Below, in pieces: positions 6,804-29,025 of a DNA stretch of 38,648 nucleotides. Source of the stretch: a virus. Each line of letters opens with the position of its first letter. Within the stretch, counting starts at the first letter, position 1. The translations under genes were made by a program, and so were the position numbers. The notes below the pieces were generated by a model that was given only the letters and a program-made list of their open reading frames with translations, had not been told where the DNA came from and made no database searches. Location: the IMG/VR virus record IMGVR_UViG_3300026311_000005, positions 1 through 38,648 of that record. One strand, written 5' to 3'.

Positions 6804-9800
6804 CTAATGCCCTCCCCTGAGCCTGCCGACGTAAGCATCGCTAATCTCGATCTTCAGCTCTTCGGCCACTTCGCGGGCGATCTCCCTGGCGTCCCCGCCA
6901 CCGTAGACGGTTATCGGGGCGTTCACTGTGACGCCCCCACCCCCTCCCGCCGTAGCCACCGCCTGCTGAATCATGGGAAGAAGATCCCCGAGAGGGGCGA
7001 CCACTTCGGGCGTCCGGGCGTCCCCGACGACCGCCCGGACGGGAGACGAGATGATCCCGCCGGGGGCGAACGAGAGCCAACCACCCGGAGCAAGCGTGCC
7101 GTCGGCATAGTTTCCGCCGCTGGGTCCCCACGTATCCAGGACTCCGGGGTTCATGACCTCCAGCCAAATGGGCTTCGTGGTGGGGGCCATGATCTCTGCC
7201 TCCAGACGATCCAACTCGGTCATCGCGGGGGATATGTCGGCGAGGACGGGGGAGATTTTCTCCGTCTTGATGTCGCCCTCCAACTTTTCCAGCTCGGTAT
7301 TCGCCGCAGCCGGATCGAGTTCCAGGTCGACTTCGACTGCGTACTGGAAGTAATTTTGCGCTTCGTATCCTTCTTTGGCCCCCTGACCGGGCCCCGCCCA
7401 TCCTTCCGTCGGGCCGATGTAAGACCTGGCGAACATGTCCTCCTGGGCTTCCTGCCACGCGCCGAATCCAGACCACCAACCGGGCATAATACTGGTCGTC
7501 GTTTCGGCGGAAGCTTTTTCCAGTCCGGCCTTCCCCGCCTTCGTGAAGTATTTGGCTATGGCGTCGATGGCTTCAGGATCGATCTCTTCCGGGATCACCG
7601 ATAGCAAGAAATCTTTGGCCAGTGATACCGTACTTTTCTCGTAATCCCAGGGGTTCGTGATGATTCGATAGGCTGCTTCTGCATCGGAGCCGAGTTCGCC
7701 GACGATCTGGCTCAGAGAATACAGATCGTCGGCGAACTCGCGGAGTCCCTTCTTTGTTTTTGATCCGTCGTATTCCTCCCAGAAGAGGGCCTCTCGGAGC
7801 GCGGAAGCTTCTGGTGATACTTTTGCCGTAACTTCTGCGATGTAAGGCTCGCCGGCGTCGATATGCTTTTGAAGCTCCGCGTTTATTCCAGTTGTATCTA
7901 TATTATTCGCTATATTGTAAGACCGCTGCTCCAGCATCCCTACAAGACGGCCCCACCAACTGAGGGCGGCCTGGCCCCCAGCCTCCTCGAACGCCTCGGG
8001 ATCGGCTAGCTTGAGATCTGCTAATTGAGTTTCGATATCAGAAGCTTCTGACGCCGTGATCAGCCCGTCCTCGAATGCCGCCCAACCGTCTTCTGCGACG
8101 TCTCCGAGTAGATCGGCCATCTTGTCGCCGAGCCCGCCGACGGCGAACGGCTTTTCGAGGGCCTCGCTAAACGCAGTTTCAAATTCCGCCTGGAGCCGTT
8201 CGGCTTCGGCTTCGAGGTCAAGCTTCAGTTCGGCTTGCGCCCGCATCTCGGCGGCCTCGCCGTGCTTCCCAAGAGCGTCTAACAGAGCAGCTTCGCGCTC
8301 GACGGGATCAATGAGGGCCCAAAGTCCGGGGAGCTGTGTCCGGATAGCGTTCATGGCAGCCTGAGGTGAATCATATGCCAGCCCAGTGAGCGATTTCCCG
8401 TTGATGTGGACCGCCCATTCCAATTGGGCATCGGGAGTATGTATTATTTCAATCGTATCCGACCCGGCGGATACCGTCCCCGTCCTGGAGAATCGCGGGA
8501 CCGTCTTCTCGTGGTAGTCGGCCCACCGCTTCATTTTGTCGTTCCAGGCATTCATGTAGCCGGAGGCAGCGGCGGAGCCAGCCCCCTCGCTGTCGACGTC
8601 TTTTAATTCCTTCTCGATACTGACACCGAGATCTGAAATGATATCGTTGAACGCAGCCAGATACTCATCGGCTGACATGTTGCCAGCGTTGGCGTTCAAG
8701 TCGGCCATCTGGCGGGTAAACTCAGTACCAAACTCTTTTGATCCGGATAAAACGCCATCGAGAGCAGTTATATATTCGTCTGCTGATATTTCTCCAGACT
8801 CAAACATCTCGGTGATCGGGCCGATGACGTATTCAGTAGATTCTCCTAATTGAGCATGGACATCTGAAATTGAGTTGATAGCATCCTGGTATTGAGTCGC
8901 CGATATCTCGCCTTGAGAGAACGCATCTTGGATCGGGCCTGCGATCGAATCAAAATCAGATCCAAGAGAAGTGACGGCGTTGGCAACGTCGTCCATTATG
9001 TTTTTGTACTCTTCCGCCGAAACCGTACCGTCCTCGAATGCTTGGGTGAGAGGTTCAAGAGCCTCGTCAGCCCCGTCACCAAGCTCCTCCGAAACGGTGG
9101 TCATGTCCTCCAGGATGGAGATGTAATCTTCAGCGGAGACCGTGCCGTTCTCAAATCCTTCGGTCAGGGGGCCGATCATGTCGGCGGCGGCGTCTCCGAC
9201 CTGCGAATAAATCTCAGATACGCTTGATAAGGATTTTTTGTACTGATCAGTTGTCAGTTTCCCCGTCGTCGCGAACTCTTGGAGCGAATCCATAAGTCCG
9301 GTAGTCGGACCTTTCATGCCAGCGCTCGATACCTCTTTCAATCCGCTGAGGTATTCTTGAGCGGTGAGCTTCCCAGCATCTCTGGCGGCCTGGACGTCGG
9401 CCATATCCTTCACCCACTCGTCGCCGATCTTAATCTGACCGCCCGCCGATTTTAGACCGTCGCTCAGCGCCCCAGTGACATCTCCAACGAACGAACCGAC
9501 AAGACCTCTGGTTTCAGTTCCGCCAGAGAGGACTTCACCTACCTTATTATCGAGCTTTTCTAGTCCTTCGTATAGTTCATATGCCCCTCCGGTAAGCCAT
9601 TGCCATCCCTGTGTTCCGAGACCGATGAGGGCTTGCGTGATGTCGTTCACGCCTTTCATCATCTGAGTGAGATATGGCAACAAAACGGCACCGATTGAGG
9701 TTGCAGCGACAGATATCTTTCCCTTGAAAATGTCTATCTGAGCATTTAGAGTTTCCTGAGACTTGGCGTAAGCTTCGTTCAGGCTGGAAGCGTTCTCCCA

Positions 9801-10925
9801 CGCGCTCGCGCCTGTCTCCAGCGCCGCATCGAGGCCCTCGATCTCCTTTGTGACCGGATCGACCTTCCCAACTAGCATCCCCATCATCTGGCCGCCCGTG
9901 GCCCCGAATTTCTGGAGGGCCTGCCCCTGCTCCTCGATTGGAAGCTCGGATATAGCGACGGCGAGCTCCTGGACGGTCCCGATGGCATCTTCTCGGATGG
10001 CCTCCTGGAACTCCGTGGCGTCCATGTCCAGCATCGACGAGATGCCGCTCTTGTCGTCCCTCATCATATAATTGAGGGCATCTTTCAGTGACTCGCCTGA
10101 GGTCTCGGCAGTCATGCCGAATGCCTGGAGCTGACCGATGAGAGCCGCCCACTCCGAAAGCTGATCTGGCGACGGTTTCAGCATCGCCATCTGAGCCGAT
10201 ACCTTTTTCATGCCGGTGACGATCGATTCTTCAGAAGTCGCCATCGAGTCGGCAAGATCGTTGATGGTGGACCCCATACGGTTGCCGAACTCGGTCCAGG
10301 TCATCTCGGCGGGCTTCACAACCGATCCGATTTTTCCAATAGATTCGCTTGCAGCGTCCGCCGACATGCCCCAGGCAGACGACATCTTGAGAATCGTCTC
10401 GGTATAATCGGCGATCTCTTCCGGCGCTATTCCCATCCGCCCGGCTCCGGCGGCGGCTCCGGCTATGGACTCCATCGATGCGCCAGTTTCGCCTCGGATG
10501 GCGAGGAGATCGGAGGAAAGTTTTGAGAACCCTGCTTCAGTGGTGTTCGTGACTTTTTGGACATCCACCATGAGGTCCTGCCACGTGGCGGCGCTAGAGA
10601 CGCATTTACCGAGCCCGACGCCGATCACGGCGACAGAAGCCCCGATGCCTAGAAGAGCGATCCCGGCGGGTCCGAGGGCGGTGGCGAAGGTCCCGGCAGC
10701 CTGTCCCAACATTCCAAACTGGGATGTCATCCCCGTGACGAGCTGGTTGCCGAGCTGCTTTCCAACGTCGCTGAAGTTCCCTCCCGTTAGAGACGCCTTG
10801 AGCCCGCCCGTTATGTTGGTCCCGGCATTGTGCATCATGCCAGGGATCGAGCCCAGGCTCTTCTCCAGGGGGCCGAGATCGGCCCCCACCTCTACAAACG
10901 CCGCGCCGAGTTTTTCCGAGACCAT
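6804..10925 (-). CDS. Tail tape measure protein (1373 aa)
   Basis: Very long, hydrophobic N-terminal segments, tandem repeats of about 35 aa (G.ISA.EY...) encoded around 8820-9230, glycine-rich C-terminus, position after the chaperone pair; GGAG about 9 nt upstream of the ATG. Confidence 0.85.
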   Translation of the reverse strand: MVSEKLGAAFVEVGADLGPLEKSLGSIPGMMHNAGTNITGGLKASLTGGNFSDVGKQLGNQLVTGMTSQFGMLGQAAGTFATALGPAGIALLGIGASVAVIGVGLGKCVSSAATWQDLMVDVQKVTNTTEAGFSKLSSDLLAIRGETGASMESIAGAAAGAGRMGIAPEEIADYTETILKMSSAWGMSADAASESIGKIGSVVKPAEMTWTEFGNRMGSTINDLADSMATSEESIVTGMKKVSAQMAMLKPSPDQLSEWAALIGQLQAFGMTAETSGESLKDALNYMMRDDKSGISSMLDMDATEFQEAIREDAIGTVQELAVAISELPIEEQGQALQKFGATGGQMMGMLVGKVDPVTKEIEGLDAALETGASAWENASSLNEAYAKSQETLNAQIDIFKGKISVAATSIGAVLLPYLTQMMKGVNDITQALIGLGTQGWQWLTGGAYELYEGLEKLDNKVGEVLSGGTETRGLVGSFVGDVTGALSDGLKSAGGQIKIGDEWVKDMADVQAARDAGKLTAQEYLSGLKEVSSAGMKGPTTGLMDSLQEFATTGKLTTDQYKKSLSSVSEIYSQVGDAAADMIGPLTEGFENGTVSAEDYISILEDMTTVSEELGDGADEALEPLTQAFEDGTVSAEEYKNIMDDVANAVTSLGSDFDSIAGPIQDAFSQGEISATQYQDAINSISDVHAQLGESTEYVIGPITEMFESGEISADEYITALDGVLSGSKEFGTEFTRQMADLNANAGNMSADEYLAAFNDIISDLGVSIEKELKDVDSEGAGSAAASGYMNAWNDKMKRWADYHEKTVPRFSRTGTVSAGSDTIEIIHTPDAQLEWAVHINGKSLTGLAYDSPQAAMNAIRTQLPGLWALIDPVEREAALLDALGKHGEAAEMRAQAELKLDLEAEAERLQAEFETAFSEALEKPFAVGGLGDKMADLLGDVAEDGWAAFEDGLITASEASDIETQLADLKLADPEAFEEAGGQAALSWWGRLVGMLEQRSYNIANNIDTTGINAELQKHIDAGEPYIAEVTAKVSPEASALREALFWEEYDGSKTKKGLREFADDLYSLSQIVGELGSDAEAAYRIITNPWDYEKSTVSLAKDFLLSVIPEEIDPEAIDAIAKYFTKAGKAGLEKASAETTTSIMPGWWSGFGAWQEAQEDMFARSYIGPTEGWAGPGQGAKEGYEAQNYFQYAVEVDLELDPAAANTELEKLEGDIKTEKISPVLADISPAMTELDRLEAEIMAPTTKPIWLEVMNPGVLDTWGPSGGNYADGTLAPGGWLSFAPGGIISSPVRAVVGDARTPEVVAPLGDLLPMIQQAVATAGGGGGVTVNAPITVYGGGDAREIAREVAEELKIEISDAYVGRLRGGH

Positions 10926-14131: not shown

Positions 14132-14472
14132 CACTCCTCCCCCGTCGGCTCGGTGAGCGCATATTCGTATAGGCCCGCAGCCTTCAGCCGATCCTCCAGG
14201 GCTTCCACCGGGTCCACCCGGCGGCCCATGCCTGTCGTCCACTCGATCCACTGTCGCCGGGTCATCCCGAACGATCCGCCGGGAACGTCGCCGCATTGCG
14301 GGGACGCGACATACTTGAGTCCCACAATCCGGGTTCCCGTGAACCCGGTGGGCATCAGGATGGCCCCCGGATCGTTCGTGCATCCCAACCGTTTCGTCGG
14401 CTCGGTGGAGCACCCCTCCAGGGGCTCCGCCCAATTCGTCTCCGGACAACATCCTATCTTTTCTTCCGCCAT
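14131..14472 (-). CDS. Cys-containing hypothetical protein (113 aa)
   Basis: ORF track; start overlaps the upstream stop as TAATG. Confidence 0.35.
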   Translation of the reverse strand: MAEEKIGCCPETNWAEPLEGCSTEPTKRLGCTNDPGAILMPTGFTGTRIVGLKYVASPQCGDVPGGSFGMTRRQWIEWTTGMGRRVDPVEALEDRLKAAGLYEYALTEPTGEE

Positions 14473-14978
14473 TATATCGCCTCGATGAACAGCTCCGTTT
14501 CGATCGGAGCCGACACGCTAGTATTCACGTCGAATGATCCTGTCATGTCCACTTCTGCCAGATGGGCCGGATTGCCATGACATCCGACGGCCTGGATGAT
14601 CCTCTCGCGGTACGTCCCGACGCCTTTCAGGGCGTACACCGAAGATCCGTCCTCCACGCGAGCTCGCGACGAGAGGACCGTAGCCCCCGAGGCCTGAGCC
14701 AGATGGGAGAGGCCGTAGTTCCCGATCATCCGGAACGATCCGCCCTCGCCGTCCATGTCCAGGCCCGCGAAGGCTCCAGAGTCGGTCAGGATCTGGCCGT
14801 AAGCCATGCTGGCGTTGCGTCCCCCCGCAGCCACCGTCTGGCCTCCGAGGCTGGACCGGAGCGAGAAGTCCCCGTCCCCGGCGTAGTCGCCCCTGATCTC
14901 GATACCGGCGGCCGGGGCGATCATGGTCATAAGGAGGATGGGGACTGATAATATCGCAAATCCGTTCATGTTTTCCAT
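14472..14978 (-). CDS. Secreted or membrane-anchored protein (168 aa) with an N-terminal signal peptide
   Basis: N-terminus MENMNGFAILSVPILLMTMIAPAAG is a typical signal sequence. Confidence 0.4.
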   Translation of the reverse strand: MENMNGFAILSVPILLMTMIAPAAGIEIRGDYAGDGDFSLRSSLGGQTVAAGGRNASMAYGQILTDSGAFAGLDMDGEGGSFRMIGNYGLSHLAQASGATVLSSRARVEDGSSVYALKGVGTYRERIIQAVGCHGNPAHLAEVDMTGSFDVNTSVSAPIETELFIEAI

Positions 14979-15341: not shown

Positions 15342-15634
15342 AGCCTCACCTCATATTCTATGATCTGACCTCCGACGCCCGTCGGTGAGAGGACCGCCAG
15401 GACGGGGCGAGGATCCCCGCCGTTGTAGATCACGAAGTCGCCCGGCTGGACGGCTGACATGGTGCGGAGGAGGGCGGTGGAGGTGATCTCCTGGCCGCTG
15501 GCGGTGCGGACGAGCTTGATCTCTTCGGTATATCGGCATTTCTGGTTTTCATAATCGGTATACGTCGGCCCGTACAGGCCCGAGCCCGTCGCCTTCCGCC
15601 AGACGAAGGTTTGGTGCATGGGGGTTATGCTCAT
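15338..15634 (-). CDS. Putative head closure or head-tail adaptor protein (98 aa)
   Basis: Size and position; 4-nt overlaps with both neighbours. Confidence 0.35.
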   Translation of the reverse strand: MSITPMHQTFVWRKATGSGLYGPTYTDYENQKCRYTEEIKLVRTASGQEITSTALLRTMSAVQPGDFVIYNGGDPRPVLAVLSPTGVGGQIIEYEVRL

Positions 15635-16401
15635 TTCTTCGCCACCAGAATCTCAGTGCACCGGCATCTCGGATGCAGAGTCGGCCCGTCGCCGCCGCCC
15701 TCAAATTGCCCATTGGGGAGTTCCGCCCTTTTCCCGGACATGGGACGGCATAGGGGGCATAGCCTTTCGTCCGGGGTGACGAGCCATTCGCGCTCCCAGT
15801 CGTCAGGGCTCAGGATGCCCCGCTTTACCGCCCCCCGGTTGGCTTCTCGATATCCCTCGTTGGCCGCCTTGTGGCCCTCAGTGAGGGCTATTGTCCCGGC
15901 TCGCCACTTGAGGAGCTTCTGACGGTATCGGTCCACCGCCAGCTTGCGGGCCGATTCGTCCATGTCCAGCTTCTCAAGACCGGCCTCGAAGTTTCGGACG
16001 GCCTGAACGTGCTGGGGGATGAGTCCGACGTTCTGCTTGATGATCTTGATTTGTTCATTCGGCGAAAGTCCCTCCTGGAAACCTCGAAGGATCGTCTCTC
16101 GGATCCCGGCCTTCGTCCCGGCGTCGATGTACTTGATCTCGTCGCCGCAGAACTTTTCCAGCCAGGCGATTGCCTCTGGGGATTTGAGGTCGAAAGAGAC
16201 GCCCATCCCCACAAGCTTCCCGATCTCTTCGAGCTGAGCCTCGCCGCCCTCCAGGAAGGCTGCCTCGATGAAAGGAGAGGGGTCGAATTTGGTCGCTGGG
16301 ATATTCTTTCGGCCGTCGATCTCTACCTCCCTCTGCCACGCCAGGAAGGCCTCGGTGATCGTCCTCGCCCACTTGTCGCCGACGTCCTGGGTAGTGGTCA
16401 T
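15631..16401 (-). CDS. Minor head (head morphogenesis) protein, Mu F / SPP1 gp7 family
   Basis: C-terminal signature ...ALTEGH...CPLCRPMSGK...HPRCRCTE matching the Phage_Mu_F domain. Confidence 0.7.
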   Translation of the reverse strand: MTTTQDVGDKWARTITEAFLAWQREVEIDGRKNIPATKFDPSPFIEAAFLEGGEAQLEEIGKLVGMGVSFDLKSPEAIAWLEKFCGDEIKYIDAGTKAGIRETILRGFQEGLSPNEQIKIIKQNVGLIPQHVQAVRNFEAGLEKLDMDESARKLAVDRYRQKLLKWRAGTIALTEGHKAANEGYREANRGAVKRGILSPDDWEREWLVTPDERLCPLCRPMSGKRAELPNGQFEGGGDGPTLHPRCRCTEILVAKK

Positions 16402-16901
16402 ACTATCTCAACAGATCCAGCTATCCAGCCCTGGAGAAGTTGTCTCGCCTTCCTCGATTGGAGGACGCCCGCACCCGCCCCCGGAGCATAAGTTTCCGAC
16501 GTCGTCGAATAGGTAGCGTGGGTGACGCCCTGCTGCTGGAGGGACCGCCTCACCTTCTGGTCTGGAGCGGCGACGCCTTCTAGTATCGCCAAGGCTTCGA
16601 GACAGCAGGCCGCTTCGACTTCGGCCGGAACCTCTGAATAGTCGGGGAGGGTTGAACTCTGGTAATATATTTCTGAGTCATCTGGACGAGTTCGGGCGGC
16701 TATATCAGGCCGCCGGGGGAACTCGCGGGCCTGGTCCGGATCGTACTTCCATCCTTTCAGCATCAGACAGTCGATGGAATCGGACGCCTCTTCCAGCGCC
16801 GCCTCCTTCTGCGCACTCGTCGCGGCGGTCCAGGCCGCTATATCGACGACGTGGGCCGTGAGCCAAACGTCGGCATCTGTTGCCGAAATGTAGGAAGTCA
16901 T
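16398..16901 (-). CDS. Putative head-tail connector protein (gp6-like)
   Basis: N-terminal pattern ISATDADVWLTAHVVDIAAW... typical of this family; position. Confidence 0.4.
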   Translation of the reverse strand: MTSYISATDADVWLTAHVVDIAAWTAATSAQKEAALEEASDSIDCLMLKGWKYDPDQAREFPRRPDIAARTRPDDSEIYYQSSTLPDYSEVPAEVEAACCLEALAILEGVAAPDQKVRRSLQQQGVTHATYSTTSETYAPGAGAGVLQSRKARQLLQGWIAGSVEIV

Positions 16902-16906
16902 CCAAA

Positions 16907-17053
16907 TCAGTCCTCAGTCTTCTTCTTTCGTACTCTCTTCACCTGCTCCGGCTCCGGGTCGGTGAGCTCCGCCGAAAGAAGGATCTCGGCAAGCCTGGTG
17001 TCGATGTCGGCCAGATCGTAATCTCCATAGGCCCAGGTAGATTCATATGCCAT
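16907..17053 (-). CDS. Small acidic protein (about 48 aa)
   Basis: Manual translation MAYESTWAYGDYDLADIDTRL...; ATG overlaps the upstream stop (TGATG). Confidence 0.25.
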   Translation of the reverse strand: MAYESTWAYGDYDLADIDTRLAEILLSAELTDPEPEQVKRVRKKKTED

Positions 17054-17328
17054 CAGTAGTCCCCCCGCAGGTCGTCCTCTTTGGCCTCGACTAGATCGAG
17101 CCGCTTCGCCTCAAGTGCCTGCTTGCTATCGAAACCCAGCCGCGCATACATCGGCATCGGGTTCTTCACCTTCTTGGTCTCCGGGACCTCACCGGTCTTC
17201 TCGTCCATCTCGGTGACGATCTCCACCTCGGAGTCGTCCGGAACTCCCGCCAACAGCACCACCATAGCCTCCGGGCAATCCCGTTCCAGCGCCACTCTGT
17301 CGTCCGGTGACAGGTGGGGCCAATGCAC
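17053..17328 (-). CDS. Hypothetical protein (91 aa)
   Basis: ORF track; position in a chain of overlapping genes. Confidence 0.3.
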   Translation of the reverse strand: MHWPHLSPDDRVALERDCPEAMVVLLAGVPDDSEVEIVTEMDEKTGEVPETKKVKNPMPMYARLGFDSKQALEAKRLDLVEAKEDDLRGDY

Positions 17329-17404
17329 GCCACGCCGCCTGAGTTCCGCCGCTGCCTGAGTCGAATCCGTAATACCGCCTCCTATGAGTCACCGTAATTT
17401 TTTT

Positions 17405-18484
17405 CTATACAGGCTCCGCGACCGCCCGAGCGCCGGCATCCGAATTCGCACCCCAGCGAGCGTGAGCCGCAACCCGACACCGCGAGCCGCAATACGAGCC
17501 GTAACCCCAATTGCCGCCCGCACGCAGCTTTACGTCTCCGGATGTACCCTGGCGTTGTATCGACCCCCGTGAGCCTGGGAGATCGAACCAAGACCACGCA
17601 GGATCTACCGTCGGATCTGTGAGTCCATCTATCCGGAAGCTCTGGTCAGCTAACCACTGGTACACGACCCCGCAACAGTCGATACATCCGCAGTTGGAGA
17701 TCATGCTCCGGCCCGCAGTGTCGAGATGGTGGCCGGTCGTGCCTGGATCTGCGGACCCGGCGATGTTCGTCTCCTCGTTCGATCCAGCTGCGAATAGTTG
17801 GAACTCTCGATCTGTCGGCAGCCTGCATCCGACAGCGCCGAGATCGTCCACGAAATCCATCCAGTCGCGAGTATCGGATATCGTGCCGCCGTTCACGCTG
17901 GCGGTGTTGACGCCCGTGCCCGATACCAGGTATATCCCGACCCAGATGTTAGCCTCCTCGCACCAAATCATTCCCTCCGGGGCGGCGATGCCCCTTGGCC
18001 GGTGCATCAGATCCCAGATCGATCCGCTCCGGTTGTCGCCGCAGTGGATGTCTCCGATCGCGTGATTCTTGAACGGGTGGCCCACTGGCAGATTCACCAT
18101 CGTCGCCGGGGTGCAGTGGAACCCCCCGATCTTTCGGGCGGTCGCGGCCGCATAACCGCTAGGAGTCGTAGAGTTGGCTGAAATCTTGATCGTAGGTGCC
18201 CGGCCGGTCGCTGGAACGCACGAGTACAGATAGAAATTTTTGCCGGCTCGGTTCGCCGGCGTCCTGTAATCGGTCCCGACGACGGTATCCCAGGTCGCTT
18301 CCAGCGCCAGATCTAGCTCGATCTGGTCGTCGAGGATGTACCCTTTCCCGCCGACGTTGACCTCAATCCCGTCAGCGGGCGACACTAGAACGTCCCGGTC
18401 GCCTGATTTCATCGACCACTTGTCGTCGATCCGCCGGACGTAGTGACCGGGTTTCGCGGCTAGATCGGGCTGGACGTAGATCAT
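17405..18484 (-). CDS. Structural-module protein with a C-terminal formylglycine-generating-enzyme-like (FGE-sulfatase type, C-type lectin fold) domain
   Basis: Motifs CRLPTDREFQLFAAGS (compare RLPTEAEWEYAARGG) and VKLRAGGNWGYGSYCGSRCRVAAHARWG...GAR (compare RGGSW...R.A.R...GFR). Confidence 0.5.
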   Translation of the reverse strand: MIYVQPDLAAKPGHYVRRIDDKWSMKSGDRDVLVSPADGIEVNVGGKGYILDDQIELDLALEATWDTVVGTDYRTPANRAGKNFYLYSCVPATGRAPTIKISANSTTPSGYAAATARKIGGFHCTPATMVNLPVGHPFKNHAIGDIHCGDNRSGSIWDLMHRPRGIAAPEGMIWCEEANIWVGIYLVSGTGVNTASVNGGTISDTRDWMDFVDDLGAVGCRLPTDREFQLFAAGSNEETNIAGSADPGTTGHHLDTAGRSMISNCGCIDCCGVVYQWLADQSFRIDGLTDPTVDPAWSWFDLPGSRGSIQRQGTSGDVKLRAGGNWGYGSYCGSRCRVAAHARWGANSDAGARAVAEPV

Positions 18485-18906
18485 GCTACGTCCTCCACGT
18501 AGTAGCTGACGCCGCCGGTGATCCGATCGGCGGATACAGCGTCTAGCACCAGTGCCTCATTCGTCCCGAGGTTGATCGGGATATTCGGGGACAGCTCAAT
18601 TGCCGAGAACTGTAGCGTCATGATCGTGGTCGATCCTGATTTGACGGCCACTTCGACGTTGGCCAGCGAGGTCAGGACGATCGATGTGATCCGAATACGT
18701 TTTCCGGCTCCTGGTGCTGGGACGATCGTCTGAGCTGACCCGGACGAGAAATCTATCGCAACGTGGCTGAGGGAGGGCGGGTCGATAGAACTGATTTTCC
18801 CGTCATCGTCCACCATGAGGGGGACGAGATCTCCGCCCACTGTCCGGCCATATGCCACCTTCGCACCGATCCGTCCGCCGTATACGATTTCTTCGTCTGC
18901 CATCAT
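18481..18906 (-). CDS. Hypothetical head-module protein (141 aa), possibly a decoration protein
   Basis: ORF track; 4-nt overlap with the downstream gene. Confidence 0.35.
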   Translation of the reverse strand: MMADEEIVYGGRIGAKVAYGRTVGGDLVPLMVDDDGKISSIDPPSLSHVAIDFSSGSAQTIVPAPGAGKRIRITSIVLTSLANVEVAVKSGSTTIMTLQFSAIELSPNIPINLGTNEALVLDAVSADRITGGVSYYVEDVA

Positions 18907-19061
18907 TCCTCCAGGATCTCGATCGTCCCCTCTTCAGCCATCAGGTCCAGGAGCGCATCGTCTAGGTAGATCCTAGCCTCGTCATACGGGACGATCTCGC
19001 CTTCATCGAAGACGTTGCCGCCCCTAATCGACGTCCGTCGGTTGAACCTCACGCGCCTCAT
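18903..19061 (-). CDS. Small protein (about 52 aa)
   Basis: Manual translation MRRVRFNRRTSIRGGNVFDEGEIVPYDEARIYLDDALLDLMAEEGTIEILEE with GGAGG upstream; stop overlaps the next ATG. Confidence 0.25.
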   Translation of the reverse strand: MRRVRFNRRTSIRGGNVFDEGEIVPYDEARIYLDDALLDLMAEEGTIEILEE

Positions 19062-19151
19062 CCGGGGCCTCCTTCTTTTTCCGGGATCGCTTCACGGGTT
19101 CGGGCCTAGGTTCGGGGGCGGGCTCTTCCGCCCCGTTCCTTGGATACCAGG

Positions 19152-19676
19152 TCATCCGCTCGTCTCCAGCACGGCGATGCGGGCGGCGAGCTCATCGAGG
19201 ATCGCTGATATCGACTCGTTCGACGTGACGTTCGTCACCGCCGAGAAGTTCCCAATTTCTCCATATTGTGTGGTCGCGTTGGTCCAGAGATCGAGCACGT
19301 CTCCATCGAGTTCGTTGATCGCTGCGGCGACATCGTTGGCCGTAGTGGTGATATTCGCGATATCTCCGAGATAGTCATAGATGGTGGTAGTGTCCGAAGA
19401 AGCGATCGTTCCGCCGACGCTGAGGTTGCCGCTCAGGTACGCCCCGCCGTCGGAGTATATGTCGCCCACGACATTGACGTCTCCCTCCACGTCCTGGTCT
19501 CCGACGACGGTATGGTTTCCCCCGATATACCCGTCCCCGGATATATTGAGGCCCGCCCCAATGAAGTAGCCGGAGGTCGTGTAGTTGGTGGACCGAGGAT
19601 ACCATGAAGACTGAGAGGCGGCCGCCCCGATCAGGAGGGCCGCCGTTACGATGATTGCGACTAGTTCGCGTTTCAT
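19152..19676 (-). CDS. Secreted or membrane-anchored protein (174 aa), unusually rich in N-x-S/T sequons
   Basis: Signal-like N-terminus MKRELVAIIVTAALLIGAAAS; nine N-x-S/T sequons; GGAGTGAGGAG upstream; immediately after the capsid gene. Confidence 0.45.
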   Translation of the reverse strand: MKRELVAIIVTAALLIGAAASQSSWYPRSTNYTTSGYFIGAGLNISGDGYIGGNHTVVGDQDVEGDVNVVGDIYSDGGAYLSGNLSVGGTIASSDTTTIYDYLGDIANITTTANDVAAAINELDGDVLDLWTNATTQYGEIGNFSAVTNVTSNESISAILDELAARIAVLETSG

Positions 19677-19686
19677 GTCGATCTCC

Positions 19687-20685
19687 TCACTCCGCGGGGG
19701 TGAGAGCTGCGAAGGGGAACCGGGTATCGTCGGTCTCGTTGACGAGGTTCTTCGGGTTCGGCAGAACCCATCCGAGCCGCATGGTGAGCCGGAGAGCTAC
19801 CATATCGTTCTGGAAGAGGTTGTAGACAAGCGCCCCAGCGGCGTCATGGATCGAAGCCTCCGTCGCCACCTTCCAGGTGATGTCCTGGCGGATGCCATAG
19901 ATGGCCTGGTTCCAGTCGCCCACTACCGCGAGGGCGATCGTGTCGTCCCATGCTCCGTTGTTCGGGAAGGTGATGGGGGCCCCGGCGAGCCTGTATCCGG
20001 TCGACTCCTTCATGTCGTTGAGGAAGAGGAACTGGCCGTTTGCGTCCCGAAGACCTCTGAGCCGTCCCATCATGGGGACGCCCCCCATCGCACCGTTGAC
20101 GATGTACCCGTCCTGCTCTACCAGAGAGTAGAGACCGTTGTTGGCTAGAAGGGCGTCAGCTAGATCGGCGAACGTCTCCCCGGACCCCACGTCATCCATG
20201 CTCACAGAGTTGGACTTTGCGATCGCCTGGGTCACGATCCCATCCGGCCAGGAGGCCGGGGCGATCGATCCAGCAGAATTGTAGAGGATCGACTGATCCA
20301 CCAGAACGCCGAGAGCTTCGACGAGACGGGGCTTGGTCATCCCCCACAGGTCGAAGTTCTGGGATGCCATGTCGGAGATCACGCTTTCGGGAACCGGGAC
20401 GATGACGGCTATCTCCTCCATCGTCATGGTGACGCCGGTCCAGTCCATCTTCGTGGTCTTTTTCAGGTTGGCAGCGGCATAGTTGCCCGCCACCTCATCG
20501 ACGAAGTAGGCGTTCGGAAAGCTGTTCAGCATCGGGATCCGCGTCACCTTCGAGGAGACGGGAGGCAGGCCCCTCATCTTCTGGAGGCAGAAGCTCTGAG
20601 TCGGGATGGCTTCGATGATCTGTTTGCTGTACTCAGTCGGCAGGAGTTCCTCCGACCTTCCAATAAAATTATCGTAGTCAGTCAT
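19687..20685 (-). CDS. Major capsid protein, HK97 fold (332 aa)
   Basis: Size, position after portal and scaffold, general resemblance to HK97-family capsid proteins. Confidence 0.65.
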   Translation of the reverse strand: MTDYDNFIGRSEELLPTEYSKQIIEAIPTQSFCLQKMRGLPPVSSKVTRIPMLNSFPNAYFVDEVAGNYAAANLKKTTKMDWTGVTMTMEEIAVIVPVPESVISDMASQNFDLWGMTKPRLVEALGVLVDQSILYNSAGSIAPASWPDGIVTQAIAKSNSVSMDDVGSGETFADLADALLANNGLYSLVEQDGYIVNGAMGGVPMMGRLRGLRDANGQFLFLNDMKESTGYRLAGAPITFPNNGAWDDTIALAVVGDWNQAIYGIRQDITWKVATEASIHDAAGALVYNLFQNDMVALRLTMRLGWVLPNPKNLVNETDDTRFPFAALTPAE

Positions 20686-20699
20686 AGGTAATTACCTCG

Positions 20700-21212
20700 T
20701 TATCGGCCCCCCCTGCCCGCTGCCCGGAGGACCATTCGATTGAATTCGTTGCCGGTCGGCGCCGATCCGCCTGGGGGCGTCGGCCCGCCCGCTTTGTTGA
20801 GACCTCTGGACTTCGCCCATTCTTTCGCATCTTCGGCGATCTCGTCCTCGGTCGTCCCCCTGAGCCGGTCCCAGTCGGCTTCGGGTATCCCGGCCTCCCG
20901 GCCGTATTTCGCCCTCCACTTTTCGAGGTCGCGTTCCGCTTCCAGGGCCGCCGCCCGCTTCTCGGCGGCGGCGTATTTATCCTGGAGTTTCTGAAGTTCG
21001 GTCTTGGAAGCCTCCTGGAGTTTGTCGTACTCGGCGGCCTTCCTCCGATATTCTGCGTACTTCGCCTCTTCCTTCCTCTTTTCCTTCGCCAGGATGGAGT
21101 TTAGCTCGTCCTGTGTGAAGGTCTTTGGAGGGTCGTTCTCTGGTGGGTTCCCGGAGCCGTTATCGCCTTCCGGTGGCTTGATATCGTCTGTCATAGAATC
21201 TTCCCCCGTCAT
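20700..21212 (-). CDS. Putative scaffolding protein (170 aa)
   Basis: Charged, alanine-rich, predicted coiled coil (KEKRKEEAKYAEYRRKAAEYDKLQ...), located between portal and capsid. Confidence 0.5.
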   Translation of the reverse strand: MTGEDSMTDDIKPPEGDNGSGNPPENDPPKTFTQDELNSILAKEKRKEEAKYAEYRRKAAEYDKLQEASKTELQKLQDKYAAAEKRAAALEAERDLEKWRAKYGREAGIPEADWDRLRGTTEDEIAEDAKEWAKSRGLNKAGGPTPPGGSAPTGNEFNRMVLRAAGRGGR

Positions 21213-21237: not shown

Positions 21238-22620
21238 TTATGAGCCGGGCATGAACATTTCGCCCGCGTTCTGAGTTCGGAGCATTTCAAGCGCGTCCTG
21301 AAGCGACGCGCCTTCGAGATGGTAGAGCATCCGGAGCGCTTGTTCGTCCCAGATGAGGCCCTGGGACTTGAGGAGCGCCACATTAGCGACCGTCTCCTTG
21401 AAGTCCTCGGGGAGGCCGTCTTGCCATTGAATCCCGATCGATTCCAGCTTCTCGGCCCCGGTGGACCCCCGCGCGGCTTCAAATGCCGTGAACGTCTGGA
21501 GCTCGGCTCGAATGATGGGATCGACGACGAGCTTGAGCCGGTCCACCTTCTTCAAGGGGACGAAAAGCATCAATCGGAGAGCCGTCCCGGATATTTGGGC
21601 TCCGAGTTCAGCAGGCTCAAAACAAGCGGCGCAAGTCTCGGATATGATGTAGAGCTGCCGGATTAGGGCGTCAATTTCGGCGAACGCCCCGGAGAGCTGC
21701 CCGTCCCATGTGACGTACCCGGGCGCGGCTTTGCCTTCCTCCACCGCGAAAGCCTTCCGCTTCCCGTCGAAAACCCAGGCCCCCGATTCGGTCTTGATGA
21801 ACGCACCCGAATCCTCGTTCGCGTAGAACATCGGCTCGGAGTGGACGTCCAGGATCCGCCCTATTCGCGTCAAACGGGCTTCCATCCGCTTGACGATCGA
21901 ATCCAGGTCTTTGTAATCGTCGATCAGTTTCCCGCTTGAGGTGTGTAAGTTCCGAACCTCAAATATTAGAGGTTGATCGACGCCCGTCTCTTCGATCGTC
22001 GGGGCCTCCCCCCCGCCCATGATATAGCCCGAAGCCGAGACGACGTACTCGCGGGTCTCGATTTGGCCGGGGCGGTGGATGCGAACTCGGAGCTTTCGCT
22101 GCTGGATGTGATCGACGTATCCGAGATCTTCGAGCCAGGCGACGACGTGCTCTTTGGTTCGCCCGTATTCATCGACGACCCCGAAATATCGGCCGGGGTG
22201 GACGACCTGCAGCTTGACCATCCCATCCTCCATATAGCCCTCGATGAAACCATGCCCGAACCGCGACACGTCGATCTGGCGAGCGTGCTGGAGCTTCCAG
22301 TATTCGGTTCGGTCGATGAAGGCCGAAAGGTACTTCTGCTTTTTGGATTCGGGGTCTTCGTCTCCGATGGCGCGTGGGATCTCCCCGAACAGGAAGTCGG
22401 CCCAGAGCGTCGATATTCGGCGATGTAGGTTGAGGATGAGAATGATTTTGTTGTACTCGGCCGTCTGGCTGGAGAAGAGGTCGAGAAGCGCCCGGAAGAC
22501 TTTCGTGTGCTCCCCATCGAAAAGGTGTTCGTTCTCTTCGTACCTCTGGAGCCGGTCCTTTTCCGATTCCGGTGGCCAGGGTTGGCCGACGGCGAGCGCG
22601 GCTTCAAGATCTCGAATCAT
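21238..22620 (-). CDS. Portal protein (460 aa)
   Basis: Size and position directly after the large terminase with a 4-nt overlap. Confidence 0.8.
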   Translation of the reverse strand: MIRDLEAALAVGQPWPPESEKDRLQRYEENEHLFDGEHTKVFRALLDLFSSQTAEYNKIILILNLHRRISTLWADFLFGEIPRAIGDEDPESKKQKYLSAFIDRTEYWKLQHARQIDVSRFGHGFIEGYMEDGMVKLQVVHPGRYFGVVDEYGRTKEHVVAWLEDLGYVDHIQQRKLRVRIHRPGQIETREYVVSASGYIMGGGEAPTIEETGVDQPLIFEVRNLHTSSGKLIDDYKDLDSIVKRMEARLTRIGRILDVHSEPMFYANEDSGAFIKTESGAWVFDGKRKAFAVEEGKAAPGYVTWDGQLSGAFAEIDALIRQLYIISETCAACFEPAELGAQISGTALRLMLFVPLKKVDRLKLVVDPIIRAELQTFTAFEAARGSTGAEKLESIGIQWQDGLPEDFKETVANVALLKSQGLIWDEQALRMLYHLEGASLQDALEMLRTQNAGEMFMPGS

Positions 22621-27535: not shown

Positions 27536-27672
27536 GTGTCGCGTCGAGTCGAGTCAGGTCCGGTCGTGGCAGTCGCGTCGAGTCAGGTCGGGTCGGGTCG
27601 GGTCGTGGCAGTCGAGTCGCGTCAGGTCATGTCGAGTCGCGTCGAGTCCAGTCGGGTCCGGTCGTGGCAGTC
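27536..27672. repeat. Pentanucleotide array 1: about 27 tandem NNGTC units in three blocks, each ending in GTGGCAGTC
   Basis: Read directly: GTGTC GCGTC GAGTC GAGTC AGGTC CGGTC GTGGCAGTC ...; 5-bp periodicity, six GAGTC units. Confidence 0.8.
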
Positions 27673-27696: not shown

Positions 27697-28332
27697 GTGG
27701 CAGCAAAAGCAAAAGCGCCCGCCCAGAGCGGGCCTATAACCCTGAAAAGGATCGAGTTGGAAACGGTTGTCGTCCCGATCGTGGGGACCTCTGAGCTGAT
27801 CGTTCACAAGTGGAGCGATAAAGCCAAGCGCCAGATGCTAGACAAGCAGATGAAACCGGGGACCAGATCAAAGAAGGAAGCAAAAGACCCGGTAGCCGAC
27901 TACGAGGCGTCGAAATATAAGACGCCCGAAGGCAAAGATGCGATGGTGACGACCGCCTTCAAGAAGGCGATGGTTGACGCCCTCCGCTACTTCGACGGTG
28001 TGAGTATGGTCCTGGGAAAGACCGCCTTCTTTGTAGAGGGCGAGTACGTCGAGCTGGAGGGCGAGCCCCGGATGAGAGAAGACATGGTGAGGCTGGACGG
28101 CGGTGGGTCTGCTGACATCCGATACCGGGCCGGGTATCCTGAATGGAAGACGAAGCTCACCATCACCTACGCAAAGGATATCCTCACTATGGAGTCGGTC
28201 CTGTCCCTGGTAGAAGCAGCGGGACAGACCCAGGGCGTTGGCGAATGGAGGCCGTCGTCCAAGAAGACCACCGGTCCCTTCGGTCGGTTCACGATCGACA
28301 CGTCCCGGAAAATTGAGGTGATCACTGCATGA
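27697..28332 (+). CDS. Hypothetical protein (211 aa), first gene of the repeat-flanked plus-strand cassette
   Basis: ORF track; GTG start with GGAG about 11 nt upstream; no recognisable motif. Confidence 0.5.
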   Translation: MAAKAKAPAQSGPITLKRIELETVVVPIVGTSELIVHKWSDKAKRQMLDKQMKPGTRSKKEAKDPVADYEASKYKTPEGKDAMVTTAFKKAMVDALRYFDGVSMVLGKTAFFVEGEYVELEGEPRMREDMVRLDGGGSADIRYRAGYPEWKTKLTITYAKDILTMESVLSLVEAAGQTQGVGEWRPSSKKTTGPFGRFTIDTSRKIEVITA

Positions 28333-28853
28333 CCAAAATGGTATATGCCTGGAGAGAGGGGCGGAGCGCCAGCCCCTACCTTTCCAACGTATCCCCCCAG
28401 GTGGTCGGTGAAGAGCTGGAGAAGGTCCGAGAACAGGGGGGGGGGATGATCTTTCCCCGTGCCGTCATCGATCACGCCCGACCATCCGACTCGCCCCTCC
28501 ATTCATGCTTTGAATGGAACGACACGGAAGCCGCCGAGAAGTTCCGAATCGTCCAGGCGAGGGGGGTCATCAAGTCTGTCGAGATCGTCGAGATCAAAGG
28601 CAAACCACTCCCCTCCCCCATCGTAGCCAACGTCAGCGTGACGCGCCGGGCCGTTGTGCCGGGCGATCCAAGGATCAGGTATTATGAGAGCACTCCTCTC
28701 GCCCTCCAGGACCCGGAGCTTCGGGACCAGGTACTCCAGAAGGCTCTTAGGGAGCTGGAATCCTGGCGGGAACGATACGACGCCTTTACCGAGTTCAGTC
28801 TGGTCTTCGGCTCGATAGAAGCCATCCAGAAAAAGATAAGATCTTCAGCCTGA
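28329..28853 (+). CDS. Hypothetical protein (174 aa), second gene of the cassette
   Basis: ORF track; 4-nt overlap with the upstream gene. Confidence 0.5.
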   Translation: MTKMVYAWREGRSASPYLSNVSPQVVGEELEKVREQGGGMIFPRAVIDHARPSDSPLHSCFEWNDTEAAEKFRIVQARGVIKSVEIVEIKGKPLPSPIVANVSVTRRAVVPGDPRIRYYESTPLALQDPELRDQVLQKALRELESWRERYDAFTEFSLVFGSIEAIQKKIRSSA

Positions 28854-28860
28854 TCTTATC
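28835..28860 (+). other. Hairpin GATAAGATC, 8-nt loop, GATCTTATC overlapping the cassette stop codon
   Basis: Read directly; arms contain TAAGATC, the half-site of the 26130/26315 palindrome. Confidence 0.3.
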
Positions 28861-28868
28861 TTTTCATG

Positions 28869-29025
28869 GCGGTCGGGTCAGGTCGTGTCGGGTCCGGTCG
28901 AGTCGAGTCGTGTCAAGGCAGTCGGGTCCGGTCGGGTCGAGTCATGTCTCGTCACGTCGAGTCAAGTCAAGGCAGTCGCGTCGTGTCGTGTCATGTCACG
29001 TCGTGTCGCGTCTGGTCGTGGCAGC
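28869..29025. repeat. Pentanucleotide array 2: about 26 tandem NNGTC units in three blocks punctuated by AAGGCAGTC, AAGGCAGTC and GTGGCAGCC
   Basis: Read directly; same unit type and orientation as array 1. Confidence 0.8.

Follow-up and report, generated by a model that had tools for sequence, protein, structure and literature searches.

The window, by which we mean the whole 38,648-nucleotide stretch analysed (IMG/VR record IMGVR_UViG_3300026311_000005), is a complete circular siphovirus genome of 38.5 kb. Between its genes for the major capsid protein and a head-tail adaptor, adjacent to the capsid gene as is usual for head decoration and head fibre proteins, lies an ORF for a fibre-like protein of 174 aa (Table 1). 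The TGA of the capsid gene (19687-19689) is overlapped by the GAGGAGA motif and is separated from the ATG of the fibre gene by 10 nt, a gap from which co-transcription and tight translational linkage of the two genes may be inferred. The fibre gene, with this gap and a similar G+C content, showed no signature of a separate unit, and the capsid-adjacent position of its homologues was kept in eight related loci (L001, L003, L004, L007, L008, L013, L016, and L019).

Table 1. Features of the fibre gene, its neighbours, and the second exported gene; positions are those of the window.
Feature	Positions	Strand	Basis or remark
Fibre-like ORF, 174 aa plus stop	19152..19676	minus	ATG start; ORF list
Major capsid protein, HK97 fold, constant upstream neighbour	19687..20685	minus	PF05065 E = 1.9e-21; phrog_10 E = 3.4e-38
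GAGGAGA, Shine-Dalgarno-like/ribosome-binding-like	19682..19688	minus	Read from sequence; 5 nt upstream of fibre ATG
43-aa ORF, starts M-T-W-Y-P-R, without signal peptide	19024..19155	minus	Overlaps fibre stop codon by 4 nt
Second exported protein, homologue of published viral sheath-like (SH-like) protein	14472..14978	minus	74% identical to vir197_00031
Signal peptide, residues 1 to ~22 (MKRELVAIIVTAALLIGAAASQ)	19611..19676	minus	Predicted cleavage within AAAS/QSS; site inferred
WYPRS, residues 25-29, mature start	19590..19604	minus	Invariant in alignments A1, A3, A4
Gly/Asn-rich segment, residues 30-95, short beta strands predicted	19392..19589	minus	Repeats G-x-N-x-[ST]-V-x-G-D; sequons N31, N44, N54, N84
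Alpha-helical stalk, residues 96-174	19155..19391	minus	Two tail-fibre-type repeats, GDIANITTTANDVAAAINELD and GEIGNFSAVTNVTSNESISAILDELA; sequons N108, N133, N143, N149, N153

The small ORF that follows the fibre gene begins with the same motif as the mature fibre protein, and it was found as M[AT]WYPR[KN]GA... in L001, L003, L004, L007, L008, and L013. The second exported protein, which was compared with the vir197_00031 sequence from Supplementary Data 1 of PMC11576556, is encoded by a different gene from the 174-aa ORF, and this gene lies within the structural block. We considered a diversity-generating retroelement for the Mtd-like gene nearby and rejected it, as the window contained neither a template repeat nor a reverse transcriptase.

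A preliminary description of this DNA had pointed to a protein next to the major capsid gene with most of its Asn residues in N-x-S/T sequons, and direct counting in the ORF confirmed this: nine of the 12 Asn are in sequons with x other than Pro (N31 NYT, N44 NIS, N54 NHT, N84 NLS, N108 NIT, N133 NAT, N143 NFS, N149 NVT, and N153 NES). The other three are N68, N114, and N121, the last of which belongs to the conserved AINELD motif of fibres. The description had also held that the sequons exceed what composition predicts by several times. This was borne out by shuffling the protein's own residues with composition kept, which gave 2.32 ± 1.32 expected sequons against the nine observed (about four times), with nine or more reached in 2 of 100,000 shuffles of the whole protein and in 5 of 100,000 for the mature part alone (p ~2-5e-5). 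Control motifs were not enriched ([ST]-x-N, 4; D-x-[ST], 1; Q-x-[ST], 1; N-x-x-[ST], 4). Among the ~55 non-overlapping ORFs of the window, this was the only one to combine many Asn with strong enrichment; the capsid protein has a single sequon among 21 Asn. The fibre gene contained no tandem DNA repeats, which means that the sequons did not arise by multiplication of a single DNA unit.

The N-terminus, previously noted as signal-like, consists of MKRE, a 16-residue hydrophobic core (LVAIIVTAALLIGAAA), and a polar SQSS. In two relatives, P0016 and P0019, an unrelated signal peptide (MKRLLSILALITVLAGGASA) ending in a classic ASA cleavage motif precedes the same mature DWYPRS, and this swapping argues that the N-terminus is indeed a cleavable signal peptide. 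The protein would thus carry the signal peptide expected of substrates of the archaeal oligosaccharyltransferase AglB. Alternatively, the hydrophobic core could act as an uncleaved membrane anchor. At locus L029, a natural variant (P0022) has no fibre body, the signal peptide being joined straight to an ORF of the 43-aa type, which indicates that the body is dispensable.

The mature protein is very acidic, with 20 Asp and Glu residues and two Lys and Arg. WYPR also heads the small cytoplasmic neighbour peptide (the 43-aa ORF) and signal-less homologues in sister viruses; the signal-less P0065, P0084, and P0133 start with M-x-[WF]YP. In the beta-rich segment, three of the nine sequons fall within a G-N-x-[ST]-V-x-G repeat, in which Asn and Thr may have a partly structural role. 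AlphaFold2 placed strands within residues 42-93 and helices at 113-138 and 153-173 in a low-confidence model; the pLDDT was 46 for the window protein (12 aligned sequences) and 40 for the 235-aa relative P0007 (17 sequences), and both models were too poor to provide evidence on the fold. The stalk has repeat units at residues ~103-125 and ~140-165, as found in AINELD-type fibre proteins, and BLASTP aligned it with the fibre-repeat proteins P0042 (E = 2e-7) and P0037 (E = 3e-5). These two and other long fibre-repeat proteins retrieved with the family profile matched tail-fibre PHROGs (phrog_25848, phrog_21249, and others). Relatives have extra stalk repeats and a C-terminal knob of ~175 aa, and the knob is missing from the window copy. 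When the 174-aa protein itself was searched, Pfam gave no match and PHROGs gave one weak match (phrog_5070, E = 0.007). The INPHARED phage collection contained nothing near at the nucleotide or protein level (protein matches at E ≥ 0.07, to bacterial tail fibres), and a profile search of PDB sequences found no match at E up to 1.

The 174-aa protein is a member of a small unannotated family encoded directly downstream of the capsid gene, with a layout of signal peptide, WYPRS start, beta-rich segment, tail-fibre-type stalk repeats and, in relatives, the C-terminal knob. All members of this capsid-adjacent family were sequon-enriched, as exemplified by the 457-aa protein of L004 (15 of 20 Asn in sequons) and P0009 (11 of 13). 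It could be argued that such sequons simply follow from the fibre fold or from composition, i.e., from beta-solenoid Asn/Thr ladders and a Thr-rich stalk, and are not glycosylated. The three sequons in the beta repeats, a conserved TTT in the stalk repeats, and the 20% Ser plus Thr in the protein are all in line with this explanation, but shuffles that keep composition yield 2.3 sequons and not nine. Homologues that share the fold and lack the signal peptide also argue against it. In the wider family, signal-bearing homologues had 362 sequons where 178 were expected, whereas signal-less ones had 897 against 827 expected (ratio, 1.06; Mann-Whitney p = 0.0013 for signal-bearing versus signal-less, using 50%-identity representatives), and in the signal-less P0037 none of 19 Asn was in a sequon against 4.3 expected. 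When stalk repeats were aligned, the signal-less fibre proteins had Ser or Leu at the positions of the window Asn, with the Thr-Thr kept. The sequons thus go with export and not with the fold. The distant signal-bearing homologues P0030 and P0045 were not sequon-enriched. P0133, a signal-less protein from the same capsid-to-adaptor locus of a sister Methanothrix virus, has two sequons and eight Asn, with 1.3 sequons expected; the capsid protein of that virus is 66% identical to that of the window, and the virus carries a vir389-type Methanothrix sheath-like protein. Enrichment was also seen in the globular, non-repetitive C-terminal domain of relatives taken alone (p of 5e-5 to 6e-3 in four of five members tested, and p = 0.12 for the truncated P0005), which again speaks against a by-product of the repeats.

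The positions of the sequons turn over fast. Across 17 members, 31 alignment columns hold a sequon in at least one member, mostly through N/D polymorphisms, and P0007 and P0009 show 14 differences, 5 of which alter sequon status. N31 and N44 are exactly complementary, one being present in 13 members and the other in the remaining 4. Such turnover and compensation are a further point against sites that merely follow from fold or composition, and we consider that explanation improbable. Between the capsid and head-tail adaptor genes there is a recombination hot spot, in which the fibre gene forms the variable cassette; similarity to vir197-type genomes at the nucleotide level stops at 19501, inside the beta-rich segment. 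Identity in the N-terminal module and in the capsid protein was 63% versus 97% for L001 and 97% versus 89% for L003. An argument for capsid binding from co-evolution was therefore abandoned, as divergence of the N-terminal module does not follow that of the capsid protein. When the N-terminal module was used by itself as a profile, P0022 was the sole match in a set of 5.8 billion proteins.

The density of sequons had earlier been taken to point to an archaeal host, and the relatives of the window support this. It shares 89-95% nucleotide identity with L001, L007, and L008 over 53-78% of those loci, and L008 (IMG/VR contig 3300002446_000088; 36,211 nt) was matched to vir197, which is listed with Methanothrix as its host (PMC11576556). 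Contigs with family members were also found in MAGs labelled Methanothrix sp., Methanotrichaceae, and Methanoregulaceae. Together with the sheath-like marker in the second exported gene, these matches support an archaeal host, which by sequence comparison would be Methanothrix. Medvedeva et al. 2023 is reportedly the source of the host assignment of vir197. The sheath of Methanothrix (Methanosaeta) is reported to be an N-linked glycoprotein, and the single N-glycopeptide reported from it, Asn-Glu-Gly-Ser, has a non-canonical sequon (PMC2952790).

With such a host, the 174-aa protein might itself be one of the sheath-like amyloid proteins by which viruses of sheathed archaea, as published, sabotage the host sheath. 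It has a signal peptide, comes from a virus of the same host, and at 174 aa falls within the published 159-288 aa (and within the ~150-350 aa of the class), but the window's homologue of these proteins is the other exported ORF, with its 74% identity to vir197_00031. Comparison with eight published viral sheath-like proteins by phmmer gave at most 1.6 bits, and the C-terminal half, predicted to be helical, shows homology with fibre repeats and none with an amyloid core of two sheets. We therefore rejected this identity, which appears very improbable.

In our judgement, the product of the gene is probably a fibre-like protein that is exported and N-glycosylated, and the virus a tailed one (siphovirus) that infects the sheathed methanogen Methanothrix. 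Export followed by N-glycosylation, to which the preliminary description had pointed, is the best reading and, as far as sequence reaches, is supported by the swapping of signal peptides and by an enrichment that tracks them. The gene would be expressed jointly with the capsid gene, in transcription as well as translation, as suggested by the 10-nt gap and the ribosome-binding motif. A Sec-type signal peptide would then direct the protein across the cytoplasmic membrane, and, judging from signal-peptide swapping, cleavage would occur just before WYPRS. On the outer face of the membrane, host AglB could glycosylate up to nine N-x-S/T sites, as the link between enrichment and export suggests, sparing N68 in the beta-rich segment and N114 and N121 (AINELD) in the first stalk repeat. 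The mature acidic protein would form a short fibre made up of the WYPRS start, the beta-rich segment, and two tail-fibre-type helical repeats. This fibre is probably trimeric, and its stalk repeats are homologous to those of phage fibres.

Tailed viruses assemble in the cytoplasm, which archaeal N-glycosylation does not reach, and the surface on which the 174-aa protein would be located may be that of the virion or of the host envelope. We tentatively prefer a head-associated fibre, which would pass through host secretion and glycosylation and meet the capsid inside the sheath, only once the membrane has been breached. We know of no tailed virus that exports a virion component, and this counts against such a fibre. 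A nearly equal possibility, though again not one we would call probable, is that the protein is exported and glycosylated but never becomes part of the virion, remaining instead in or on the envelope of the host, at the membrane face, the S-layer, or the inside of the sheath, with a role in late egress, together with the sheath-like protein, or in superinfection exclusion. An analogy is provided by signal-bearing "moron" genes in the structural operons of bacteriophages, such as lambda lom and bor and those for HK97 gp15 and T5 Llp, which act in exclusion. The signal peptide fits a protein of the envelope, and so does P0022, in which the fibre body is dispensed with. Moreover, the exported sheath-like protein is also encoded inside the structural block, so location there does not by itself show virion membership, and egress roles have been proposed for exported proteins of these viruses (PMC11576556). 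On the other hand, in the sister Methanothrix virus homologues without a signal peptide are encoded at this capsid-to-adaptor locus, a typical place for head decoration or head fibre genes, the stalk is homologous to virion fibre repeats, and the gene is closely linked to that of the capsid protein with nothing to mark it as a separate unit. The preferred head-associated fibre can be developed into a more specific proposal, in which the virus exports its own virion fibre via Sec for the sake of an N-glycan coat, the capsid picks the fibre up after membrane breach in the sheath-enclosed space, and the free WYPR N-terminus left by signal-peptidase cleavage is the docking element. In this full form the proposal seems to us rather unlikely.

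A capsid-adjacent fibre with a secretion signal and dense, fast-evolving sites would mean either that host-glycosylated parts are added to particles outside the cell membrane, or that the envelope of a sheathed methanogen is remodelled by a second exported class besides the sheath-like proteins. If export of a virion fibre were true, tailed-virus maturation would extend outside the cytoplasm, and a host-made glycan coat could be had without an envelope. Either answer bears on virus entry into and exit from Methanothrix, which ranks among the principal sources of methane in digesters and wetlands and for which, to our knowledge, there is no cultured virus. As a practical rule, a viral protein family in which only the signal-bearing members are enriched in sequons can reveal exported proteins, and also archaeal hosts, from sequence data alone. 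Sites are gained and lost rapidly, much as in the dynamics of glycan shields on eukaryotic viral glycoproteins; we know of no description of such dynamics for viruses of prokaryotes, nor of an earlier report of a signal-peptide-bearing, sequon-dense fibre in an archaeal tailed virus.

Among known systems, the N-glycosylated proteins of archaeal viruses (the HRPV-1 and HFPV-1 spikes, the SSV1 capsid, and the SSV19 tail) resemble the window protein in their many sequons and presumed reliance on host AglB, but they come mostly from enveloped or membrane-containing viruses (PMC10384203). The tailed virus HRTV-DL1 showed faint glycostaining only, and loss of aglB had no effect on it (PMC10384203). 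The exported SH-like proteins (PMC11576556, ISME J 2024) share with the 174-aa protein the virus group, host genus, signal peptide, similar size, location in the late structural block, and sequon enrichment (51 sequons against 24 expected in 11 published proteins). They differ in that the 174-aa protein belongs to another gene family without sequence similarity to them, has helical fibre repeats and not an amyloid-like beta core, and has a fixed place after the capsid gene.

Phage tail fibres with "...L-[ST]-T-L-x-T-T-x-K-x-x-[IV]-V-x-[AS]-I-N-E-L-D" repeats (phrog_25848, phrog_21249, and phrog_2137) align with both repeats in the stalk of the window protein and are matched by the family profile with E values down to 1e-39. 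The relatives of the window protein carry more repeats and a distal knob, as such fibres do. In contrast to these cytoplasm-made virion components encoded in the tail block, the window protein has a signal peptide, only two repeats, and no distal domain, its gene lies in the head block between the capsid and head-tail adaptor genes, and Asn two residues before the conserved Thr or Ser creates its sequons. Known head fibres and decoration proteins (phi29 gp8.5, the HFTV1 turrets gp30/gp31 [PMC12494034], and T4 Hoc) lack a signal peptide and are assembled in the cytoplasm, and the window protein matches no solved structure by sequence. It resembles them in its capsid-adjacent gene, its apparent form of a projecting fibre, its variable distal part, and, judging from P0022, its dispensability; contact with the host S-layer has been suggested for the HFTV1 head projections (PMC12494034).

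The preliminary description had singled out a secreted, sequon-rich (N-x-S/T) protein of 174 aa encoded next to the major capsid gene, and both the enrichment and the adjacency were confirmed. The TGA of the capsid gene, identified by its PF05065 and phrog_10 matches, lies 10 nt upstream of the ATG of the 174-aa gene, and a GAGGAGA motif is located 5 nt 5' of this ATG. Nine of the 12 Asn residues (N31, N44, N54, N84, N108, N133, N143, N149, and N153) are in sequons, compared to 2.32 ± 1.32 expected from shuffling of the protein's own residues; at least nine were reached in 2 of 100,000 shuffles of the whole protein and in 5 of 100,000 of the mature part only. Control motifs (reversed and neighbouring) were not enriched in this protein, and no tandem DNA repeats were found within its gene. 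None of the other ORFs in a non-overlapping set of ~55 from the window was both Asn-rich and strongly sequon-enriched; in the capsid protein, 21 Asn go with 1 sequon. A plus-strand ORF (28329-28853), also of 174 aa and with no signal-like N-terminus, had 3 of 3 Asn in sequons (0.3 expected, p ~0.0015), probably by chance since it has so few Asn.

The ends of the window form an exact 127-nt repeat (bases 1-127 = 38522-38648), and the assembly therefore closes into a circle, giving a complete viral genome of 38,521 bp. Its gene order is that of a siphovirus, with nearly all genes on the minus strand: the large terminase, portal, and scaffold genes lead up to the capsid gene, after which come the 174-aa gene, some small ORFs, the 141-aa ORF and the Mtd-like gene, the adaptor and MuF-like genes, and then the tail terminator, major tail protein, tape measure protein, and distal tail proteins. 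No close DNA relative was found in the cultured-phage collection, and the capsid protein was at most 42% identical to bacterial-phage capsids. The 877-aa distal tail protein, containing six diverged 126-nt (42-aa) repeats (2469-3147), is a candidate beta-propeller-like receptor-binding protein. The fibre-like ORF contains an exact 63-nt direct repeat (38244-38306 and 38382-38444, 138 nt apart), and the two adjacent methyltransferases presumably guard against host restriction. Two 130-170-nt arrays of degenerate GTCGN/GTCNG pentamers punctuated by GTGGCA (27538-27670 and 28848-29020) flank two plus-strand genes in a lower-G+C region, and may be protein-binding iterons or a replication origin.

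Features of the window and WYPR-headed small ORFs of related loci (L-numbers)
Feature	Position	Strand	Evidence or remark
877-aa distal tail protein	2035-4668	-	BNR/Asp-box and Sortilin-Vps10 repeats
Tape measure protein	6804-10925
SH-like homologue, 168 aa	14472-14978	-	signal-bearing; 74% identical to vir197_00031
MuF-like protein	15631-16401
Head-tail adaptor	16398-16901
48-aa ORF	16907-17053	-	adaptor-like N-terminus joined to '...PEPEQVKRVRKKKTED' tail of L001-type small WYPR ORF
91-aa ORF	17053-17328	-
Mtd-like protein	17405-18484	-	PF21916 'Mtd second domain' E = 4.7e-13; phrog_11262 E = 3.8e-47
141-aa ORF	18481-18906	-	upstream of Mtd-like gene
43-aa ORF	19024-19155	-	overlaps fibre gene's stop codon; starts M-T-W-Y-P-R
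174-aa protein (fibre gene)	19152-19676	-	ORF list; sequon-rich
Major capsid protein, HK97-type	19687-20685	-	PF05065 E = 1.9e-21; phrog_10 E = 3.4e-38
Scaffold	20700-21212
Portal	21238-22620
Large terminase	22617-23951
Gene between arrays	27697-28332	+	phrog_4652
Gene between arrays	28329-28853	+	phrog_15946
N6/N4 DNA methyltransferase	29171-30529	-	PF01555
N6/N4 DNA methyltransferase	30526-32259	-	PF01555
Fibre-like ORF	37722-38603		weak tail-fibre match, phrog_9851
Small WYPR ORF, L001	7457-7567
Small WYPR ORF, L003	10453-10584
Small WYPR ORF, L004	about 3200
Small WYPR ORF, L007	about 11883
Small WYPR ORF, L008	about 11050
Small WYPR ORF, L013	about 11510

A search of 5.8 billion proteins yielded ~20 close relatives of the 174-aa protein, none of them annotated. 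Wherever context exists (L001/L002, L003, L004, L007, L008, L013, L016, L019, and L020), the family gene comes immediately after the capsid gene; the bacterial phage with the most similar capsid lacks such a gene, and a head-tail gene takes this place. The proteins are modular. A signal-like helix comes first, and next is an invariant WYPRS, which leads into x-[ND]-Y-x-T-x-G-x-F-x-G...SGDG-x-I-x-GNLTVGG. Two kinds of helical repeat (DVGDVTNMTTTATDLAGAIDELD and EIGDLTSLNTTETGSLVGAINELD) come after this in varying numbers, and most relatives end in a ~175-aa C-terminal domain (PMWHVQ...VKIYVYEAV). In the window copy, the beta-rich segment is expanded, two stalk repeats are present, and the C-terminal domain is absent. 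The family profile gave 900 distant matches (E <=1e-3) in 1.84 billion representative proteins, falling into two classes. The first consists of long proteins with many stalk-repeat matches, which are tail fibres by PHROGs annotation (phrog_25848, 21249, 26419, and 2137), some bearing Peptidase_S74 or carbohydrate-binding modules; the second consists of proteins of 170-260 aa matching the C-terminal domain, many with [WF]YP after a signal peptide and a few starting directly with M-x-[WF]YP. By BLASTP, the 174-aa protein itself aligned to fibre repeats of the homologues P0042 (E = 2e-7) and P0037 (E = 3e-5). No solved structure matched it by sequence, and neither AlphaFold2 model was good enough for a comparison of folds.

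The signal-like N-terminus (MKRE, 16 hydrophobic residues, and AAAS/QSS) fits the anatomy of a signal peptide, as the preliminary description had proposed. The comparative data make the stronger case. P0016 and P0019 are nearly identical to P0007 in mature sequence and have a wholly different leader (MKRLLSILALITVLAGGASA), ending in a textbook A-x-A motif immediately before DWYPRS; other leaders precede [WF]YP in P0031, P0061, P0147, P0030, and P0045, while signal-less homologues have this motif at residues 3-5. Since leaders interchange and signal-less homologues open with the motif, it would represent the mature N-terminus, with the leader as a removable add-on.

The sequon enrichment extended to all close relatives (11 of 13 Asn in P0009 and 15 of 20 in the 457-aa L004 protein) and to the non-repetitive C-terminal domain by itself in four of five members tested (p 5e-5 to 6e-3; not significant, p = 0.12, for the truncated P0005). 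Across all collected proteins, those with a signal-like N-terminus had 362 sequons versus 178 expected, and those without had 897 versus 827; for 50%-identity representatives, the counts were 179 versus 116 and 866 versus 818, respectively (Mann-Whitney p = 0.0013). A natural control was provided by L026, a sister Methanothrix virus with a capsid protein 66% identical to that of the window, which carries a signal-less WYP-headed homologue and a vir389-type Methanothrix sheath-like (SH-like) protein (6001-6600 and 9762-10499). This homologue, P0133 (MAWYPVPK...), is encoded between the capsid and adaptor genes of L026 and has 8 Asn and 2 sequons versus 1.3 expected; judged by these N-termini, export of the family would differ among related viruses. 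In pairwise alignments of stalk repeats with signal-less fibre proteins, the conserved Thr/Ser was kept, and where the window protein has Asn two residues upstream, these proteins have Ser or Leu (ANITTT versus SSITTT; WTNATT versus LSTLVTT). The published exported SH-like proteins of these viruses have 51 sequons versus 24 expected. Sequon positions also turn over fast in the family: 31 alignment columns have a sequon in at least one of 17 members, mostly through N/D polymorphisms, the N31 and N44 sequons are exactly complementary (13 + 4 = 17 members), and P0007 and P0009 differ at 14 positions, 5 of which alter sequon status. Together, these results tie the enrichment to the exported members and not to the fold, and the sequon set behaves like a selected glycan coat. 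That the sequons are purely structural, without glycosylation, is unlikely. As caveats, three of them lie in a beta repeat, to whose structure Asn and Thr may partly contribute, a few distant signal-bearing members showed no enrichment, and the sole glycopeptide reported from a Methanothrix sheath is Asn-Glu-Gly-Ser (PMC2952790). None of the scanned window ORFs was recognised as a glycosyltransferase, and the host would thus have to carry out any glycosylation.

The sequons had initially been taken to point to an archaeal host, which was supported by near-identity to the vir197 type, the SH-like marker, and contig bins. Several IMG/VR contigs of anaerobic-enrichment or digester origin carry capsids 94-98% identical to that of the window, and L001, L007, and L008 share 89-95% nucleotide identity with the window over 53-78% of their genomes. 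Contigs with family members were binned as Methanothrix sp. (the all-viral, 23-kb L013), Methanotrichaceae, Methanoregulaceae, and 'Euryarchaeota', and one of 2.6 kb as a bacterium. The host assignment of vir197 reportedly originates from Medvedeva et al. 2023. L008 (IMGVR_UViG_3300002446_000088, 36,211 nt) is listed among Methanothrix-associated viruses (PMC11576556 supplementary tables), and the reference virus vir197, also 36,211 nt, is described as extrachromosomal and head-tailed, with Methanothrix as the host genus (PMC11576556). The exported SH-like protein is a marker for viruses of sheathed archaea, represented in vir197 by vir197_00031 (PMC11576556). Its homologue in the window, with sequons at 2 of 6 Asn, is encoded among the head-tail joining genes. 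The 174-aa protein was itself considered as an SH-like protein and rejected: that role falls to this homologue, no similarity to eight published SH-like sequences was found, and its own C-terminal half is predicted to be helical and resembles fibres.

Nucleotide similarity to genomes of the vir197 type ends at 19501, inside the 174-aa gene and past the N-terminal module, and resumes at 16965. Together with the 2.5 kb that follow, the distal portion of the gene is therefore an exchanged cassette (16965-19500), absent from vir197-type genomes and including the 141-aa ORF and the Mtd-like gene, which lie among head genes. The N-terminal module did not track capsid divergence, and the gene as a whole is mosaic. 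The 48-aa and 91-aa ORFs are mosaic scars; L003 has a single 69-aa ORF whose two halves are represented in the window by the 141-aa and 91-aa ORFs, split by the inserted cassette. The C-terminus of the Mtd-like protein is Cys/Gly/Trp-rich, like the targets of diversity-generating retroelements; neither a template repeat nor a reverse transcriptase was found in the window.

Homologues of the 43-aa small ORF come after the fibre gene in a further six genomes, making seven in total, with the pattern M[AT]WYPR[KN]GA[DE]..., a Pro/Glu-rich linker, and a KR-rich tail. In the short metagenomic contig L029 (421-624), the 67-aa P0022 is encoded directly downstream of the capsid gene, and its signal peptide runs directly into WYPRKGADEP.... 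P0022 has lost the fibre body by deletion between the two WYPR sites, and the fibre body is therefore dispensable. The WYPR start is common to the exported protein, the small signal-less peptide, and the signal-less homologues of sister viruses. A partner within reach of WYPR-headed proteins on either side of the membrane may be the capsid, which passes from the cytoplasm to the outside. We propose that the 174-aa protein would be exported by Sec, cleaved before WYPRS, glycosylated by AglB at up to nine sites, and assembled into a trimeric fibre. Tentatively, and with less than even confidence, we read it as a head-associated fibre, which would join the head only once the membrane has been breached. 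Its genomic position, the presence there of signal-less homologues, its fibre-like build, and the WYPR start argue for this, and in other phages decoration proteins bind to capsids that are already complete. Nearly as probable is that the protein acts late on the envelope, in egress or superinfection exclusion, a role with precedent in the SH-like protein of the same gene block and in the signal-bearing moron genes that occur in phage structural operons.

Our searches turned up no earlier account of a fibre-type cassette, signal-bearing and sequon-dense, beside the capsid gene of a tailed virus, although the 2023 compendium may mention one. The virus group and its sheath-like proteins have already been described (PMC11576556). 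Archaeal-virus glycoproteins are known, mostly of enveloped or membrane-containing viruses, and in one tailed haloarchaeal virus glycostaining was no more than faint and loss of aglB had no effect (PMC10384203). Head projections are present in the archaeal tailed virus HFTV1 (PMC12494034).
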